The translations under genes and the position numbers were made by a program. Of a DNA stretch of 32,876 nt, positions 2,777 to 17,349 are shown piece by piece. The DNA comes from a virus. Its lineage: Duplodnaviria; Heunggongvirae; Uroviricota; Caudoviricetes. A model generated the notes under the pieces. The model worked only from the letters and a program-made list of their open reading frames with translations. It was not told the origin of the DNA and ran no database searches. The stretch is from the IMG/VR virus record IMGVR_UViG_3300047163_000032, positions 1-32,876 of that record; one strand, 5' to 3'. Positions within the stretch are counted from its first letter, which is position 1, and each line of letters starts with the position of its first letter.

Positions 2777-3429
2777 TGCCATTCAATAGCGAATTCAAGA
2801 AGGTAGGGGAACTATATCTTCCAGCGTTCTCCGGTACTCGCGTGATGATGCTCCCGGTTATGCTTGGCGATGACGAGTCGATACCAGAGTTCTTGCACCA
2901 CTACAAGAACGCGGTCAGCGGTCTATTCCAGATGGCGGACGAGGATCACATCGGCAAAGTGGGATACCTCACCATCGACGAAAAAGCCGTCAAGCCGAAG
3001 GCCACTCACCGTAGAGCAGGTCTGCACGTTGACGGCGTGTATCAAGGCGAGTCGGGTGCTTGGGGTGGAGGGAAGGGAACCGGTGGCGGATGGGGAGCGC
3101 GTGGGGCAGGGATGCTCACTGTAGCGTCTCATCCGGGATGCAGGGCGTGGAACCAAGACTTTACCGGATGGCCGGGGTGGGAAGGCGAGTGTGACCACCT
3201 TGCGGAAGAACTTCAAGGCTTAGGAACGCTGTTCGGGGCTAACGAGGTCTACTGGGTGGATGGGATGTGTGTCCATGAATCTGTCCCGCAGCCGGTCGAG
3301 GTCAACCGCCAGTTTGTTCGCCTTTCGATGCCGAGCGATGCACCGTGGTTTGAATGCTACACGGTGAACCCGTTGGGAGTGATGCCGACTGGCGAGATAC
3401 TGCCACGGCGCGAGTTTATGAATCAGTAG
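2776..3429 (+). CDS. Putative 2-oxoglutarate/Fe(II)-dependent dioxygenase
   Basis: GAGGAGG RBS and ATG at 2776. HRRAGLHVDG (HxD), distal VHES (His) and NRQFVRL (Arg) give the facial-triad layout. Confidence 0.6.
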   Translation: MPFNSEFKKVGELYLPAFSGTRVMMLPVMLGDDESIPEFLHHYKNAVSGLFQMADEDHIGKVGYLTIDEKAVKPKATHRRAGLHVDGVYQGESGAWGGGKGTGGGWGARGAGMLTVASHPGCRAWNQDFTGWPGWEGECDHLAEELQGLGTLFGANEVYWVDGMCVHESVPQPVEVNRQFVRLSMPSDAPWFECYTVNPLGVMPTGEILPRREFMNQ

Positions 3430-3456
3430 TAAGACCAGACCAAGGAGGAAACAAAA

Positions 3457-3774
3457 ATGAAAGTCATAGGAACAGCAGCCGGTGGGAGGCTGCTGATAGA
3501 GGCAACCCGAAACGAGGTAGCGCGGTTGAGGGGCTACGACGACGAGTATTCGCTCAAGGACAAAAATCGCGGTTACGGCACAGAACCCGGCGACCAAATC
3601 GACATCGACGGACTGTACAAGCACGTTGTCCACATGAAGGCGATTGAGAAGCGGTTGCTCGAAGCCAAGGCTCAGATTGACCGAGCTTCGGAAGGGCTGC
3701 TTTTGGCTCACGACAAAATCCACACGGCCATGACCCCTGAACCGCCAACCTCGACAGATAAGGAGATTCACTGA
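3457..3774 (+). CDS. Hypothetical protein
   Basis: AGACCAAGGAGGA RBS; TGATG coupling to the next gene. Confidence 0.65.
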   Translation: MKVIGTAAGGRLLIEATRNEVARLRGYDDEYSLKDKNRGYGTEPGDQIDIDGLYKHVVHMKAIEKRLLEAKAQIDRASEGLLLAHDKIHTAMTPEPPTSTDKEIH

Positions 3775-3992
3775 TGGCACAGCGCCAATTGCAATTACCG
3801 CAGAGCAGCATGATTTCCGGGGCGACTTACGACGACGAGACCGGAGAGTTGCTGGTTTCATTCACCAATTCGGGAGCGGTCTACGCTGTTTCCAGCGTCG
3901 ATCCCGGCACGGTTCTCAACTTCGAGGGGGACTCCAGTCCGGGTAGGTTCTGGAACAGCAACTTTCGCGGCAGCGCCACACGGGTGAGCTAA
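3774..3992 (+). CDS. KTSC domain protein
   Basis: SSMISGATYD...LLVSFTNSGAVY.V..V......SSPGRFWNSNFR matches the KTSC pattern. Confidence 0.75.
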   Translation: MAQRQLQLPQSSMISGATYDDETGELLVSFTNSGAVYAVSSVDPGTVLNFEGDSSPGRFWNSNFRGSATRVS

Positions 3993-4633
3993 TGACGCAG
4001 CTCGTAAAAATCCCCGGTGGCACCTTTGAGGAGCAAGGACACCGCTATTGCGACGAGACCGGACAGCGATTGCTCTCGGTCACGTCACTCTTTGAATCGC
4101 TGGGGATGATCGACTACGCCGGGGCCAGTGAAGCGGTACTTCAGTGGAAGTCGGAACTCGGTGTCGCCGTTCATTCCGGGATCGAATATCTGACCGAGGG
4201 GACGCTGGATTGGGACACGGTTGATGAGAACGCCATGCCCTACATCATGTCGTTCGAGGACTGGGCAAGAGAGAGCGGGTATGTATCAACCGGGCGAGAG
4301 CAGCAGGGCATTTTGACGATCCACGGAATGAAATGCGGCTACCGCTACGACAACATTGGCACCATGATCTACAAGGGTCGCAAGCGGTGGGTCATGCTGG
4401 AGTTAAAAAACACCGTTAAATCTTCGCCAACGTGGAAGATTCAGACGGCGGCTTATACGATCCCGGCCCCGAAACTGGAGAACGGGGAGCAGTATCTTCG
4501 ATGCGCGTTGCAGCTTAGGCCGGACGCGCCAGCAATCCCTCACTACTACGAGGATGCGGAGGATGCGAGGTCGTTCGCTCACTTTCTGTACTGCGGGATT
4601 TGGAAACTAAACAACGGGTTCAAACTGAAGTAG
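3992..4633 (+). CDS. PD-(D/E)XK (RecB/Cas4-like) phage exonuclease
   Basis: LSVTS, G.AVHSGIE, YRYDNIG, LELK and W.IQTAAY motifs; sits in the same module as bet. Confidence 0.75.
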   Translation: MTQLVKIPGGTFEEQGHRYCDETGQRLLSVTSLFESLGMIDYAGASEAVLQWKSELGVAVHSGIEYLTEGTLDWDTVDENAMPYIMSFEDWARESGYVSTGREQQGILTIHGMKCGYRYDNIGTMIYKGRKRWVMLELKNTVKSSPTWKIQTAAYTIPAPKLENGEQYLRCALQLRPDAPAIPHYYEDAEDARSFAHFLYCGIWKLNNGFKLK

Positions 4634-4649
4634 ACCAAGGAGGACGCAA

Positions 4650-5438
4650 ATGGCAACAGCAGTCACAGATATCGCAGTTCGTTTGAAGTCGGAGATTCTC
4701 GGCCCCGAGTCTCCGTTCGAGGTGGAGCGTATCGCTCTGCGGCAGGAGTACCATCAGATTCTCGCAGGCGCGGCGAAGGTTGTGGTTACCGACCACACTA
4801 CCAAATCAATCGCTGTCGAGCACGGTCGTCTGTTGCAAGCGGCTTCGATCAAGTCCACCGAGTTTTTCAAGCGGTACAAGAAACAAATCGATGAGGTGAA
4901 GGACGTTGTTCTGGCGGCTGAGAAGTCGGACGTTGGAGCGATCACTTCCGAGAAGAGCAGGCTGGCGAACTCAATCAGCAAGTTCGATGCTGAAGAGTTG
5001 GCGAGAAAGCGCGAGCAGGAACGCAAAGACCGCGAGGAAGCGGAAAGGCTTCTGAGGGAAGAGCAGATTCAGCGAGCTATCGAACTTGAGCAGTCGGGCA
5101 ACAATCAGGAAGCGGAGCGCGTGCTTGAAGAGGAACCGATGCCTCTTCCGGTGATCCAGCAGCGCAGCACAGCCGCTCCGGTATCCGGTTTTGTGGGCCG
5201 CACGACATGGAAGGGGCGGCTGATCGGGTCGAACGATCCCGATATCGACACAGCCGAAAGGAAGGCGCGGCAGAGCCTGTTTGCCTTGGTCAAAGCCATT
5301 GCCAACGGTCAGGCCCCGCTGGAACTCATCAAGCTGGACGAATCGTTTCTCAACAAACAGGCGGCATCGTTTCGGCAGGGTTTGAACTACGTCGGATGCG
5401 AGGCTTACGAGGTCAAGTCGAGCAACTTTAGGGCGTAA
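4650..5438 (+). CDS. Coiled-coil hypothetical protein of the recombination module
   Basis: AGACCAAGGAGGA RBS; long E/R/K-rich helix and a G-R-T-T-W-K C-terminal segment. Confidence 0.65.
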   Translation: MATAVTDIAVRLKSEILGPESPFEVERIALRQEYHQILAGAAKVVVTDHTTKSIAVEHGRLLQAASIKSTEFFKRYKKQIDEVKDVVLAAEKSDVGAITSEKSRLANSISKFDAEELARKREQERKDREEAERLLREEQIQRAIELEQSGNNQEAERVLEEEPMPLPVIQQRSTAAPVSGFVGRTTWKGRLIGSNDPDIDTAERKARQSLFALVKAIANGQAPLELIKLDESFLNKQAASFRQGLNYVGCEAYEVKSSNFRA

Positions 5439-10203: not shown

Positions 10204-10436
10204 GCATCCATATCACCAGCATCGTTCCCCCTGAGACCGGCTGGCCGATGGCATATCACTGCCGCTACTGTAAACAGACGGTCATCCTTCACAATCCGTG
10301 GGCTCTAAAACCGCAGGATGGCGACATGTTCATCGTGGAATCCTGCGCCGATGAAAACGAGACGCACCACGGGCTGCGCGAAGCGGTGACCAGACTCAAC
10401 AGGCGCAGATGGCTGGTGGATGACGAAACCGCATGA
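10200..10436 (+). CDS. Small hypothetical protein with a CxxC motif
   Basis: GTGA coupling; YHCRYC. Confidence 0.5.
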   Translation: MSIHITSIVPPETGWPMAYHCRYCKQTVILHNPWALKPQDGDMFIVESCADENETHHGLREAVTRLNRRRWLVDDETA

Positions 10437-11788
10437 ATAACTCGGAAATCTCATACGAGCAAGAACTACCCGCGTCTATCGCCATAGAGAAAGCACTTCT
10501 CGGCAGCATCCTTTTAGACGGCGACCTGCTGTGGCAGGCAGGGGAAGACCTAACAACCACCGACTACGTCTTAGACAGCCACCAGCGCATCTACAGCGCC
10601 ATGCTAAGGATTGCCGAAGATGGCAAGACGATAGACATCCTCACCCTATTGGAAGAGATTGGCCCAGCCGTGCAAAGCGTGGGAGGCGCTTCTTACATTT
10701 TTTCGTTGACGGAGGGGTTGCCAAGAAAGCTGAGTATTGCCGAGTGGGTAAAAATCGTCAAAGAGAAGAGCACGCTTCGCCAGATCATCAAGAAGTGCTC
10801 ACTATTGATGACGCAAGCCTACGATCAAGGCGATCCAATGGAGATACTCTCCCGGATGCAGGGAGACGCCATTGAAATTGCGGCCGAGGGGGGAGCTGAA
10901 TCGGCAGTACATGTGGCGGCGGTCACCCAAGAGGTCATAGACCGCATCGAGCGCCAAATGATCGAGACGACGCAGAATACCGCACTGGGGCTAACAACCG
11001 GGCTTGAACCTTTAGACGTTGCCACAAAAGGCTTGTTCCCTGCGGAGTACAGCATCATCGGAGGAGAATCGGGAGGAGGTAAAACCTCTTTGCTTACACA
11101 GATTCTTGTAGCCAACGCGCTCAAAAGGGTTCCGGTGGGGATGTTCTCAATCGAGATGAAGAAAGCTCAGGTGGTCTCGCGCATGTTTTCATCGGTTAAC
11201 GAGTCGTTTACCGCTTCTCAGATTCGCGATCCAAGGCTCATTAGCCTGTACGACAAGAAAAAGCTAAAATCGGTTCGATCAGCAATAGATTCACTGCCAA
11301 TTTGGATCGATGACACAGCAAGAATTTCCTTGGACAAACTCAAGGCGAGAGCGAGGGCGATGATTCGAAAGCACAACATCAAGTTGCTTGGGGTAGACTA
11401 TTTGCAGTTGATTCTCGCCGCTTTGGGCACTGGCAAGATTTCGCCGGATCAAGTTATCCAAGAGGCGACTTTCGGACTTCGAGACCTAGCCAAAGAGGAA
11501 AATATTCACATCGTCGCGTTATCGCAATACAGCCGCGACACCAGCATAGGTCGAGTAAAGAAGGGCGGTCGGCAGCGGTTGAAAGGGTCGAGCGCCATCG
11601 AGCAGTCCGCGCAAAACATCTTTCTCATTGAGGCGGACGATCCAAAGGACGGCGAAGAAGAGGTGGACGCGCAGATCACCATCGACAAGCAGCGGGAGGG
11701 CGGAAGGAAGAAGATTAAATGCCGTCTTTCTTTCAAGCACTTAACATTCAAACCGGAAGAGGTTGTTCCGCAGGAAGACGAGACATAG
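10433..11788 (+). CDS. dnaB: DnaB-like replicative helicase
   Basis: N-terminal EKALLGSILL...HQRIYSAM; Walker A GESGGGKT; FSIEM; VDYLQLI; ALSQYSR; LKGSSAIEQ; IDKQREG. Confidence 0.92.
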   Translation: MNNSEISYEQELPASIAIEKALLGSILLDGDLLWQAGEDLTTTDYVLDSHQRIYSAMLRIAEDGKTIDILTLLEEIGPAVQSVGGASYIFSLTEGLPRKLSIAEWVKIVKEKSTLRQIIKKCSLLMTQAYDQGDPMEILSRMQGDAIEIAAEGGAESAVHVAAVTQEVIDRIERQMIETTQNTALGLTTGLEPLDVATKGLFPAEYSIIGGESGGGKTSLLTQILVANALKRVPVGMFSIEMKKAQVVSRMFSSVNESFTASQIRDPRLISLYDKKKLKSVRSAIDSLPIWIDDTARISLDKLKARARAMIRKHNIKLLGVDYLQLILAALGTGKISPDQVIQEATFGLRDLAKEENIHIVALSQYSRDTSIGRVKKGGRQRLKGSSAIEQSAQNIFLIEADDPKDGEEEVDAQITIDKQREGGRKKIKCRLSFKHLTFKPEEVVPQEDET

Positions 11789-14902: not shown

Positions 14903-15567
14903 AAGAGAGGCCGATTCCGTTTACGTCGCCGATGGTTCGGGCGATTTTGGCGGGCGCGAAGACGCAGACGCGGCGGGTGGTGAAGGATCAACCTCCACCA
15001 AATTGCTCGTTTTTAACCCAAGCAAAGACAGGCCAGTACCCTGACAATCGTGCGCGGTGGGGATGGACTGACGGCGCAACCGTTGATTACTCATGGCATC
15101 CATGGATCGGCGATGAACCCGCTTGGCAGACTTGCCCCTACGGTCAGCCCGGAGACCGGCTCTGGGTGCGCGAAGCTGTAGAGCGCTACCCAATCCCAAA
15201 CCTCCTCACAGGCGAGCCGACCAACGATTATGGAGGACGGTATGTCGCAGATGGAGAACCTGTCCTTACCCAAAAGCCAGACATTCCTGGTTTTGATATT
15301 AGGTGGTGGTATTCGCGGAATACCTGCCCTCCAATACACATGCCACGCTGGGCCTCACGCATCACGCTGGAGATCACCGAGGTGCGTGTCCAGCGGTTGC
15401 AGGAGATCAGCGAAGAAGATGCCAAGGCTGAAGGATTTGGTCCTCGTTCAGCCCGCGCATTGTTTTGCGGCATGTGGGATACGATCCACGGCAACGGTGC
15501 GTGGCGTGCCAATCCTTGGATATGGGCGCTGAGTTTGCGCGTACTGGACGCGGCGGAGCGGCTGTGA
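14899..15567 (+). CDS. ASCH/PUA-like phage protein
   Basis: MKERPIPF...MVRAILAGAKTQTRR, CPYGQPGDRLWVRE, PIHMPRWASRITLEITEVRVQRLQEISEEDAKAEG, W.ANPWIW. Confidence 0.75.
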   Translation: MKERPIPFTSPMVRAILAGAKTQTRRVVKDQPPPNCSFLTQAKTGQYPDNRARWGWTDGATVDYSWHPWIGDEPAWQTCPYGQPGDRLWVREAVERYPIPNLLTGEPTNDYGGRYVADGEPVLTQKPDIPGFDIRWWYSRNTCPPIHMPRWASRITLEITEVRVQRLQEISEEDAKAEGFGPRSARALFCGMWDTIHGNGAWRANPWIWALSLRVLDAAERL

Positions 15568-15598
15568 GTCATTGGGCGCTGTACCACGAAGGGAAGCG

Positions 15599-16909
15599 AT
15601 GAACTACTACAACGAGCTCGACCCCGTAAAGGCCGAGACGATTCGGGAAGCGATCAAGGCGGGAGCGATTTCGCCGGGGAAAGTGGACGAGAGGAGCATT
15701 ACCGATGTCGAACCAGCCGACCTTGTGGGATATGCCCAGTGCCACTTCTTCGCCGGTGGAGGATTCTGGTCACTCGCACTCCGAAACGCCGGCTGGCCCG
15801 ATGATAGGCCAGTCTGGACTGGAAGCTGCCCCTGCCCCAGTTTCAGCGCGGCAGGCAAAGGGCGAGGGTTTGATGACCCTCGTCACCTCTGGCCGGATTG
15901 GTTTCGGCTCATCCGCGAGTGCCGACCTGCAACAGTCTTTGGTGAACAGGTTGATGCAGCGATTCGACATGGCTGGCTCGACCTTGTTTGTGGAGACCTG
16001 GAAGCGGAGGAGTACGCCGTTGCGGCGGCGGTACTGGGAGCACACAGCGCGGGCGCGCCGCACATCCGTCAAAGGCTGTACTTCTGTGCCGACACCGGAC
16101 ACGGGGATGAACGTGGTCGATGCGAACTGGGAGGTCCGTCGTCAGACGGCAAAGGAGAAGCACGGAAACAACGGCTTTGGAATGACGATTGTGATGGCAG
16201 CTTCGCTCGCGAGCGTTCCTTCTCCGAAAGCGAGCGACGACAATTCGAGCAGATATGCCGATCCACAGCGAGGCAGCGCGGTTCATTATGCGAGGCCGAA
16301 CCATTCGACCGATCTGGCTCACACAGTTCAACACTTGGCCTCAGTCCCAACCCCGATGGCAGGCTCCCCGGCAACGGAGACGTACAACGCGGCGGGCAAC
16401 TCGGATTACTCGCGGCGGATTGTGGAGCTGGCGACAGTGATAACCCCGACGCAAGAGGATCACAAGTCGGACGGGCCGAAGGCGATGGAGGAGTACGACG
16501 ACGCGATTCGCGAGGGGAGGCCTGTTCGCGAATCAGCACAGAGGCTCCGGAATCAAGCACGGCTAGCAGCGGTGACAACCCCATCATCCCGCGAATGGAA
16601 GGACACTTCGGGAATGTCAGAGAGTGGCGTGGACCCGGATGGCTCGACCCGCTCACGGCTCGATCAATTGCCGAGGCAGGCGCAACTCGCGGATTCTGGG
16701 GTGACTGCGACTGGTGGTTCGGACGCGACGGCCAGTACCGGCCAGCTGGACCCGGCATACAGCCGCTGGCTCATGGGAGTCAAGCCAGAGTGGGACGGCT
16801 TCGTATGTACGGCGACGCGATCTGTGTCCCAACGGCGCAAGCATTTATTGAAAGCTACATCGAAGCGCGGCTGACCGCCGTGGCAGGTAGGGAGGAGAAT
16901 GGGTTATGA
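15599..16909 (+). CDS. C5 cytosine DNA methyltransferase, catalytic ('alpha') polypeptide
   Basis: Motif I HFFAGGG, IV GSCPCPSFS, VI GEQV, VIII PHIRQRLYF, X RLRMYGDAICVP. No motif IX in this frame. Confidence 0.88.
   Translation: MNYYNELDPVKAETIREAIKAGAISPGKVDERSITDVEPADLVGYAQCHFFAGGGFWSLALRNAGWPDDRPVWTGSCPCPSFSAAGKGRGFDDPRHLWPDWFRLIRECRPATVFGEQVDAAIRHGWLDLVCGDLEAEEYAVAAAVLGAHSAGAPHIRQRLYFCADTGHGDERGRCELGGPSSDGKGEARKQRLWNDDCDGSFARERSFSESERRQFEQICRSTARQRGSLCEAEPFDRSGSHSSTLGLSPNPDGRLPGNGDVQRGGQLGLLAADCGAGDSDNPDARGSQVGRAEGDGGVRRRDSRGEACSRISTEAPESSTASSGDNPIIPRMEGHFGNVREWRGPGWLDPLTARSIAEAGATRGFWGDCDWWFGRDGQYRPAGPGIQPLAHGSQARVGRLRMYGDAICVPTAQAFIESYIEARLTAVAGREENGL
15705..16874 (+). CDS. Nested +1-frame methyltransferase partner ('beta') with five repeated modules and motif IX
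   Basis: Own RBS (GAGGAG 15691-15696, 8 nt before ATG 15705); 389 stop-free codons inside alpha; GQLDPAYSRWLMG is motif IX-like. Confidence 0.75.
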   Translation: MSNQPTLWDMPSATSSPVEDSGHSHSETPAGPMIGQSGLEAAPAPVSARQAKGEGLMTLVTSGRIGFGSSASADLQQSLVNRLMQRFDMAGSTLFVETWKRRSTPLRRRYWEHTARARRTSVKGCTSVPTPDTGMNVVDANWEVRRQTAKEKHGNNGFGMTIVMAASLASVPSPKASDDNSSRYADPQRGSAVHYARPNHSTDLAHTVQHLASVPTPMAGSPATETYNAAGNSDYSRRIVELATVITPTQEDHKSDGPKAMEEYDDAIREGRPVRESAQRLRNQARLAAVTTPSSREWKDTSGMSESGVDPDGSTRSRLDQLPRQAQLADSGVTATGGSDATASTGQLDPAYSRWLMGVKPEWDGFVCTATRSVSQRRKHLLKATSKRG

Positions 16910-17349
16910 AATGGTTCGATAGGCTTTTCAAATTGGAAGAGATCAATGGCGGCAACCGGTGCCCGACCTACTTGTACCGCTGGACGTTGCTCAAGGCGAA
17001 AGACTGGAGCGTATACCTTCTCCACTTCGTCGGCGATGACCCGTCGCTCGATCTTCACGACCACCCGAAGAGATTCATCAGCATTGGCCTCTGGGGAAAG
17101 TACAACGAGTGGCAGAGCGAAACGGACATACTGTTCGACTCCCCAGAAGTCTTTCGCGCCCCTTGGATTCGCACCTTTCCTGCGGAGCATCGTCACCGGC
17201 TGAGCATGATCGACGGCGGTACTTGCTGGACACTCGTCATTGTGCTCAAGGCTGTTCGCCCTTGGGGCTTCTGGCGTATGGGCAAATTCATTCCGTTCCG
17301 TGAGTACGTCAACGGCAAGATCGCAGATGCGCGTAAGGCTTGTCCATAA
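16906..17349 (+). CDS. Cupin-like phage protein
   Basis: YLLHF...DLHDHPKRFISIGLWGKYNE...HRHRL...WTLV...WGFW. Confidence 0.65.
   Translation: MKWFDRLFKLEEINGGNRCPTYLYRWTLLKAKDWSVYLLHFVGDDPSLDLHDHPKRFISIGLWGKYNEWQSETDILFDSPEVFRAPWIRTFPAEHRHRLSMIDGGTCWTLVIVLKAVRPWGFWRMGKFIPFREYVNGKIADARKACP

Follow-up and report, generated by a model that had tools for sequence, protein, structure and literature searches.

The window analysed here, the first 32.9 kb (32,876 nucleotides) of the 96,876-base IMG/VR virus record IMGVR_UViG_3300047163_000032 (Caudoviricetes; CheckV completeness 100%), carries a gene for a DNA cytosine-5 (C5) methyltransferase at 15599-16909 and, wholly inside it in the +1 frame, a second open reading frame (ORF) of 389 codons at 15705-16874. 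We refer to the two products as alpha and beta. Comparison with related loci demonstrates purifying selection on both frames, though not on a long filler region in the middle of alpha, as well as the exchange of short cassettes of beta between phages. On the strength of sequence comparison, we are highly confident that both frames are real genes. The nested layout is maintained by selection in thousands of phages and has mostly been missed by annotation. We infer that alpha and beta form a heterodimer and that beta has a role in target recognition; the pair is probably a nested heterodimer similar to M.EcoHK31I, with target recognition located on beta.

In the explanation that we propose, the product of the locus is an orphan phage DNA cytosine-5 methyltransferase, with its two polypeptides translated from two frames of one mRNA. 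Alpha would supply the catalytic large domain, comprising the S-adenosylmethionine pocket, the catalytic cysteine of motif IV and motifs VI, VIII and X, and would read through approximately 175 unconstrained filler codons before reaching motif X. Beta would initiate at its own ribosome-binding site (RBS) and ATG, embedded in the alpha codons for E-R-S-I-x-D-V, and would consist, in order, of a loose leader, a helix-hairpin N-core, the cassette array, a constant module and a helix resembling motif IX. With its N-core and motif IX end docked on alpha, the array would come to lie where single-chain enzymes have their target recognition domain (TRD), i.e., the variable region between motifs VIII and IX, and in the modelled arrangement it most likely reads the DNA target.

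Evidence for selection on both reading frames

Related loci were gathered by tblastn with alpha and with beta, and both queries matched the same places in many phages, drawn from IMG/VR, metagenomes and annotated phages of Bordetella, Erwinia, Xanthomonas, Rhodobacter, Klebsiella, Burkholderia and Escherichia. At approximately 40 related loci a beta homologue occupies the +1 frame of alpha, starting 55-125 nt after the alpha start and ending 5-40 nt before the alpha stop, and the +2 frame is broken in all of them.

The openness of each frame was assessed with synonymous shuffles, in which one protein was held fixed and stops were counted in the other frame. With alpha fixed, a mean of 4.6 stops is expected in the beta frame at this locus and just 0.2% of shuffles are stop-free; with beta fixed, the expectation for the alpha frame is a mean of 12.2 stops, and none of 1000 shuffles is stop-free. 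No stops were observed in either frame, compared to 15 in the +2 frame. The initial annotation had named the beta frame of homologues as a place to look for stops, and none occurs there in any of 26 non-redundant loci, for which 0.4-11 would be expected per locus with alpha fixed. The alpha frames of the same loci are likewise all free of stops (4-25 expected per locus with beta fixed).

A per-frame check of selection had also been suggested, and was carried out here as identity at the fourfold-degenerate sites of codons for the same residue across 26 diverged loci, where composition alone predicts 0.26. For alpha, this identity is 0.28 (saturated) 5′ of the beta ATG, 0.38-0.44 across the beta leader, 0.61 across the beta N-core and 0.57 across the beta C-terminal block. 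For beta, it is 0.69-0.77 across the alpha catalytic domain, falls to 0.37 (near saturation) across the alpha filler, and is 0.59 across the alpha C-terminal part. These graded values indicate that each frame is constrained just where the protein of the other frame is conserved, and by this measure the alpha filler need only remain open. Codon usage scores in the filler are +0.14 (coding-like) for the beta frame and −0.17 (non-coding-like) for the alpha frame. Stop avoidance, fourfold-site constraint and recurrence at some 40 loci together uphold the earlier description of the nested ORF as a gene.

The size of the beta family is a fourth, independent line of evidence. A word-indexed search returned 633 homologues, and 119 of 120 among the matches listed lack a Pfam domain. 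A profile built from 77 beta sequences matched 15,333 cluster representatives at E-values up to 0.001 and 6,915 at E-values up to 1e-30; the beta start falls at profile position 5 or 11 in most of 150 representatives among the matches listed.

The catalytic chain

Alpha (436 residues; plus strand, ATG at 15599, stop at 16907-16909) consists of a C5-methyltransferase large domain, a filler linker and motif X; an in-frame TTG lies 5′ of its ATG, at 15572. Its motifs read FFAGGGF (motif I, residues 50-56; 15746-15766), SCPCPSFS (motif IV; 15824-15847), FGEQV (motif VI; 15938-15952), IRQRLYF (motif VIII; 16064-16084) and YGDAICVP (motif X; 16808-16831), all on the plus strand. Residues F51 and G53 of motif I, along with C77, P78, C79, E116, Q117, R157 and R159, are invariant in the alpha alignment (A2). 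Motif IV reads P-C-P here and in some close relatives (L044, L045 and L049), compared to P-C-Q in at least 90% of the aligned alpha proteins.

The match to Pfam PF00145 (57.9 bits, cut-off 22) is limited to residues 73-164 and profile positions 65-160, i.e., motifs IV-VIII only, whereas phrog_363 matches end to end with a large insert (E-value 4.8e-64). Of the features that define PF00145, alpha has the F-x-G-x-G of motif I, the Pro-Cys of motif IV, the E-N/Q-V of motif VI and the R-x-R of motif VIII, but between motifs VIII and X its chain lacks both a TRD and motif IX. In their place are residues 171-345 (16109-16633, plus strand), a filler that is open but, by its composition, predicted local distance difference test (pLDDT) scores, fourfold sites and codon usage, unconserved as protein. 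Arginine, glycine, serine, aspartate and glutamate make up 58% of it, compared to 36% of residues 1-170, in agreement with the motif set and R/G/S/D-rich filler described in the initial annotation. In the alpha model, residues 1-170 and 410-433 are confidently placed, and 171-345 are disordered (pLDDT <50). The best fold matches of this model are M.HaeIII and M.HhaI, of which approximately 170-190 of some 325 residues, corresponding to the large domain, are covered.

Beyond the filler, a conserved block of alpha (residues 346-403) and motif X together span 16634-16831 on the plus strand, and are dual-coded with the constant module and motif IX of beta. Conserved columns of A2 in this part are W367, P389, L390, L401, Y404, G405 and A407. 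Within it, at 16634-16800, both frames are strongly conserved over approximately 55 codons (the alpha W-R-G-P-G-W...D-G-x-Y-R-P block and the beta constant module), which is unusually tight dual coding.

The nested chain

The plus-strand beta ORF is preceded by the putative RBS GAGGAG (15691-15696), which is formed by the alpha E-R-S codons and stands 8 nt before the ATG at 15705. Many related loci likewise have a GGAG, 8-9 nt upstream of an ATG that falls on the same alpha D-V codons. In some, the beta ATG is instead 12 nt further downstream, and beta begins later in L008, L036 and L039.

Residues 1-66 (15705-15902) form a weakly constrained leader that is predicted to be disordered (pLDDT <50). 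This is followed by the N-core (residues 68-127; 15906-16085; pLDDT 80-88), with a helix at 70-89 and a beta-hairpin at 95-117, which lies over alpha motifs VI-VIII and has invariant residues G91, S92, T93, L94, W99, T104 and P105. After the cassettes and the constant module, the chain ends in a motif IX-like block and a C-terminal helix (residues 361-386), together spanning 16740-16862 (pLDDT 85-87). The block reads GQLDPAYSRWLMG (16740-16778) and contains the invariant residues L348, S353, W355 and L356. The model of beta alone has a mean pLDDT of 58.6, and only the N-core and C-terminal helices are confident. Beta matched phrog_1008 (E-value 1.6e-19) and phrog_31772, both of which are labelled ‘DNA methyltransferase’, but had no match in Pfam (E-values up to 1), NCBIfam or PDB sequences (E-values up to 10). 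The positions initially assigned to the alpha motifs, beta ORF, GAGGAG, motif IX-like block and module starts were all accurate.

The cassette array

Five modules begin at 16086, 16215, 16344, 16437 and 16572 and end in ..LAS, ..LAS, ..LAT, ..LAA and ..LAD, so that each junction follows the pattern of a hydrophobic residue, x-T/S-P and, at the far end, L-A-x. The initial annotation had seen them as five tandem modules. The five starts are indeed there, but only the junctions are common to them: the interiors resemble one another no more than shuffled sequence does (z −1.2 to 1.3) and no tandem repeat was found at the DNA level over the array, which rules out true tandem repeats.

For cassette typing, 118 homologues were split at the junctions and clustered at 50% identity and 80% coverage. 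This yielded 524 cassettes with a median of 40 residues, at 1-9 per protein, which, apart from the constant type A, comprise at least 28 recurrent types as well as many singletons. There are 114 different architectures among the 118 proteins, and the order is not fixed. Type A is present, and always last, in 107 of the 118, where it leads into motif IX. The fifth module is of this type, so this copy (architecture J-T-B-N-A) comprises four variable cassettes, J (16086-16214), T (16215-16343), B (16344-16436) and N (16437-16571), and one constant terminal module (16572-16739) with nearly invariant columns 303-329, all on the plus strand. All five modules here begin with valine, as had been noted, in contrast to the WPTP given there as usual for similar modules; valine is nonetheless normal in this clade (393 of 524 modules), and tryptophan is found in other clades, e.g., in Escherichia coli phage K1ind3.

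Cassette content hardly tracks N-core identity at all (Spearman 0.07), which indicates that cassettes transfer between genes by recombination. Cassette T of this copy, for example, shares 93% identity with a cassette of a protein whose N-core is only 51% identical, and cassette B, found in 60 of the 118 homologues, is 100% identical among proteins with 65-71% N-core identity. By the number of architectures and the uncoupling of content from the core, the cassettes in the overprinted frame behave as exchangeable units. Such exchange is the behaviour that would be expected of exchangeable specificity units and, by analogy, resembles the tandem TRDs of Bacillus phages. The cassettes may therefore be alternative TRDs of a multispecific enzyme that protects phage DNA from several host restriction systems, although we hold this only tentatively, at a little less than even confidence. 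More tentative again is the proposal that they constitute a horizontally shuffled DNA-target code, each cassette being an independent TRD, with which the phage could set and reset multispecific 5-methylcytosine by recombination.

The modelled complex

Modelling of the complex, which had been suggested as a check, gave an interaction score (ipSAE) of 0.90 in three runs and 0.00 for the best control, a pass that denotes likeness rather than binding. Among solved complexes, 58 of 80 attain that mark, as do 2 of 110 mismatched pairs. The runs share at least 43% of their contacts, and the partner pLDDT is at least 50. In the model, the beta N-core contacts alpha residues 119-167, with hairpin residues 110-113 on alpha 144-146; residues 353-358 of beta (S-R-W-L-M-G) rest against motif X of alpha (404-411); and the last helix of beta (363-371) lies on the first helix of alpha (10-18). 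Interface residues in the C-terminal part of alpha fall within 344-427. Docking of both the N-core and the motif IX end would tie the cassette array to the large domain at either end, in the manner of the variable region of a single-chain enzyme.

Alternative explanations

An open beta frame could in principle result from base composition, as the G+C content of the region (58-61%) lengthens chance ORFs. However, shuffles that preserve both composition and protein still predict stops, the +2 frame has 15, alpha synonymous sites are constrained only over the beta core, and 15,333 cluster representatives match the beta profile. A composition-driven ORF is thereby refuted, and we assign it virtually no probability. 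Almost as improbable is a single protein, produced by a double ribosomal frameshift (alpha N-terminus, beta middle, alpha C-terminus) or left behind as a broken or mis-sequenced gene. Joining alpha 1-170, beta 128-360 and alpha 400-436 does restore the usual order of motifs I-VIII, variable region, IX and X, and two homologues have real frameshifts. Such a chain would, however, need neither an open alpha filler nor beta codons 1-127, yet both are open in 26 of 26 loci, even through 200-residue inserts, and beta has its own recurrent RBS and ATG. Nor could one chain carry both parts, because the beta N-core, which is under strong selection, overlaps the essential motifs VI-VIII of alpha. The frameshift and pseudogene readings were rejected on the basis of the open frames, the N-core constraint and the recurrent start signals.

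The other two alternatives accept beta as a gene and differ over what it does. Beta could be a conserved protein that is no methylase subunit, such as a regulator, an anti-defence factor or another DNA-binding protein, with alpha acting as a relaxed methylase that lacks a TRD. The absence of a Pfam, NCBIfam or PDB sequence match for beta would fit this, as would the complete set of catalytic motifs and the conserved pre-X block in alpha. We nevertheless consider it unlikely: alpha lacks the motif IX-like block with which beta ends, the complex model sets that block against motif X as in single-chain enzymes, the fold matches of alpha span the large domain only, and in the M.EcoHK31I precedent both chains are required. 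A more serious alternative, although a doubtful one, is that the two-subunit enzyme is real but that the array is one composite DNA-binding or scaffold domain of single specificity, in which the number and type of cassettes would tune affinity, site length or stability. The identity and frequency of cassette B fit a structural element, the modelling of each cassette as a loop plus a short C-terminal helix (in the model of beta alone) resembles a repeated structural unit, and the cassettes have no similarity to proven multispecific TRDs. This explanation is weakened by the mutually unrelated interiors, the variable order, the 114 architectures and the uncoupling of content from the core, since such variability is more typical of independent exchangeable specificity units.

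A two-subunit enzyme that recognises its targets through the cassettes of beta remains the explanation we favour, but several observations weigh against it. The pass of the complex may reflect the memory that the modelling program has of single-chain C5-methyltransferase folds, as halves of a known fold tend to pass complex modelling. The cassette region was modelled at low confidence, so its position over DNA derives from topology only. Some homologues have just one cassette or two, and in approximately half of all the homologues cassette B is near-identical, so a structural role fits as well as a TRD role. Alpha retains its conserved block at residues 346-403, which could itself contribute to recognition. 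Two homologues are frameshifted 5′ of motif IV, meaning that not all copies are intact, and a search of the SPbeta genome with the beta profile revealed no sequence similarity between the cassettes and the multispecific TRDs of SPbeta.

Genomic context and variant loci

The genes surrounding the methylase belong to a phage early/replication module. They include those for a Bet/RecT-like annealing protein (403-1563), a ParB-like protein (1674-2516) and a DnaB-like helicase (10433-11788), as well as several PHROG families without an assigned function. No restriction endonuclease gene was seen adjoining the methylase. The gene 5′ of alpha stops at 15567. The downstream gene (16906-17349; phrog_4786, labelled ‘cysteine dioxygenase’) has its ATG at 16906, where it overlaps the alpha stop as ATGA (16906-16909); this overlap suggests translational coupling of the two genes.

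Several related loci depart from the common layout. At L043 (alpha 2925-4895; beta, P0104, 3001-4869), a Cys-rich, HNH-like insert of approximately 210 residues lies between the beta leader and N-core; alpha remains open for 657 codons through this insert and has a second filler between motifs VI and VIII. At L044 (alpha 1074-2816; beta, P0005, 1165-2685), beta is extended at its C-terminus by a stretch that has an HNH-like Cys/His motif, and through this extension alpha is open for 581 codons (581 residues), with motif X following. The HNH-like appearance of the beta variants (Cys pairs and an HH..N motif) was judged by eye only, and the extra domains of P0104, P0005 and P0038 matched no Pfam family at E-values up to 0.01. 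At L033 (1489-2976), alpha has 496 residues and extends 653 nt past the beta stop, and an extra insert of approximately 560 nt separates its pre-X block from motif X. Finally, two independent homologues, at L045 (1501-2700) and L049 (1501-2600), with called proteins P0060 and P0090, have a frameshift just 5′ of motif IV. The called protein in each is the first ~75 residues of alpha (including motif I) fused to beta, and the remainder of alpha is in the third frame. An assembly error is improbable for P0060, as one study has it on 15 contigs; these loci could represent either decay or a rewired variant.

Implications

Long gene pairs that are fully nested on the same strand are considered rare in DNA phages. 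At loci of the present kind, gene callers normally give just one of the two frames, and beta appears in databases as a ‘hypothetical protein’ or mislabelled as a ‘DNA methyltransferase’; the gene calls of this virus record give it only in shortened form. If the two-subunit explanation is correct, thousands of phage ‘Dcm-like’ genes are mis-annotated, and target recognition resides on an unannotated protein. Natural variants that differ from one another by a single cassette would then be a tractable system for studying how C5 methylases read DNA, and the array would inform both the simultaneous escape of phages from many restriction systems and the evolution of a gene whose inserts must be readable in two frames. 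The pair would also provide methylase halves that are split by nature, of the sort employed in targeted methylation tools (PMC2836561). Should the cassettes be a shuffled target code, each new one must also be stop-free in the alpha frame, and the more than 15,000 clusters would make this the principal form of multispecific anti-restriction methylation among phages other than those of Bacillus, as well as the largest known family of long same-strand overlapping phage genes.

Comparison with known systems

GenBank annotates both nested coding sequences in two records, Xanthomonas phage PhiXhv-5 and E. coli phage K1ind3. In K1ind3 (L053:601-1530), they have been annotated since 2010 as ORF30, ‘C-specific methylase’, and ORF29, ‘Mte8-like protein’. 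ORF29 matched the beta profile with a probability of 99.9% (E-value 2.5e-36); it has two cassettes reading WPTP, unlike the five starting with V described here. ‘Mte8-like’, like the second ‘DNA methyltransferase’ coding sequence of some phage records, is an annotation label only: no function or subunit role was found in the literature searched, nor any paper describing the phage family as nested subunits.

The Bacillus phage multispecific C5 methyltransferases are those of SPR, phi3T, rho11s, H2 and SPbeta, as cited in PMC8936443 and PMC12707154. Like the phage pair, these enzymes have short, unrelated, apparently exchangeable units side by side between constant parts. They are, however, single chains with in-frame TRDs and proven multispecificity, whereas the cassettes of the phage pair are on a separate nested polypeptide, and the junction motifs differ. 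The SPbeta enzyme is one open frame of 453 residues, with 41 and 63 stops in its other frames. As the beta profile had no match in the SPbeta genome at E-values up to 10, homology between the cassettes and the SPbeta TRDs was rejected. The interpretation put forward in the initial annotation is partly supported: the two-subunit arrangement is consistent with both the comparative evidence and the complex model, and multispecificity is plausible.

M.AquI (CYCGRG; PMC3404938) is a C5 methylase that is naturally split in its variable region into two polypeptides, as here. The phage pair differs from it in retaining motif X on alpha and in having its genes nested in different frames.

We know of one characterised enzyme with a beta subunit encoded wholly in another frame of alpha, namely M.EcoHK31I. 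The precedent was correctly represented in the initial annotation. According to PMC2836561 and PMC3404938, it is a heterodimeric C5 methyltransferase of E. coli HK31 that recognises YGGCCR (Lee, Kam & Shaw, 1995, via PMC2836561 and PMC3404938), its wholly overlapping beta is required, and alpha carries motifs I-VIII, X and a predicted TRD, with motif IX on beta. The same accounts add that the N-terminal region of beta is important for association, and that internal Met codons can start beta. The phage pair shares with M.EcoHK31I, as known by description only, the nesting, a motif IX on beta and a motif X on alpha. M.EcoHK31I is part of a restriction-modification system, whereas the phage pair is an orphan gene in a replication module. 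The TRD of M.EcoHK31I is assigned to alpha, whereas the middle of the phage alpha is filler and the variable cassettes are on beta, which is also nearly as long as alpha and has the overprinted N-core in addition. Compared with M.EcoHK31I, the phage family would thus appear to have shifted target recognition to beta, and this putative shift, the overprinted N-core and a beta of almost the length of alpha are the features that set it apart.

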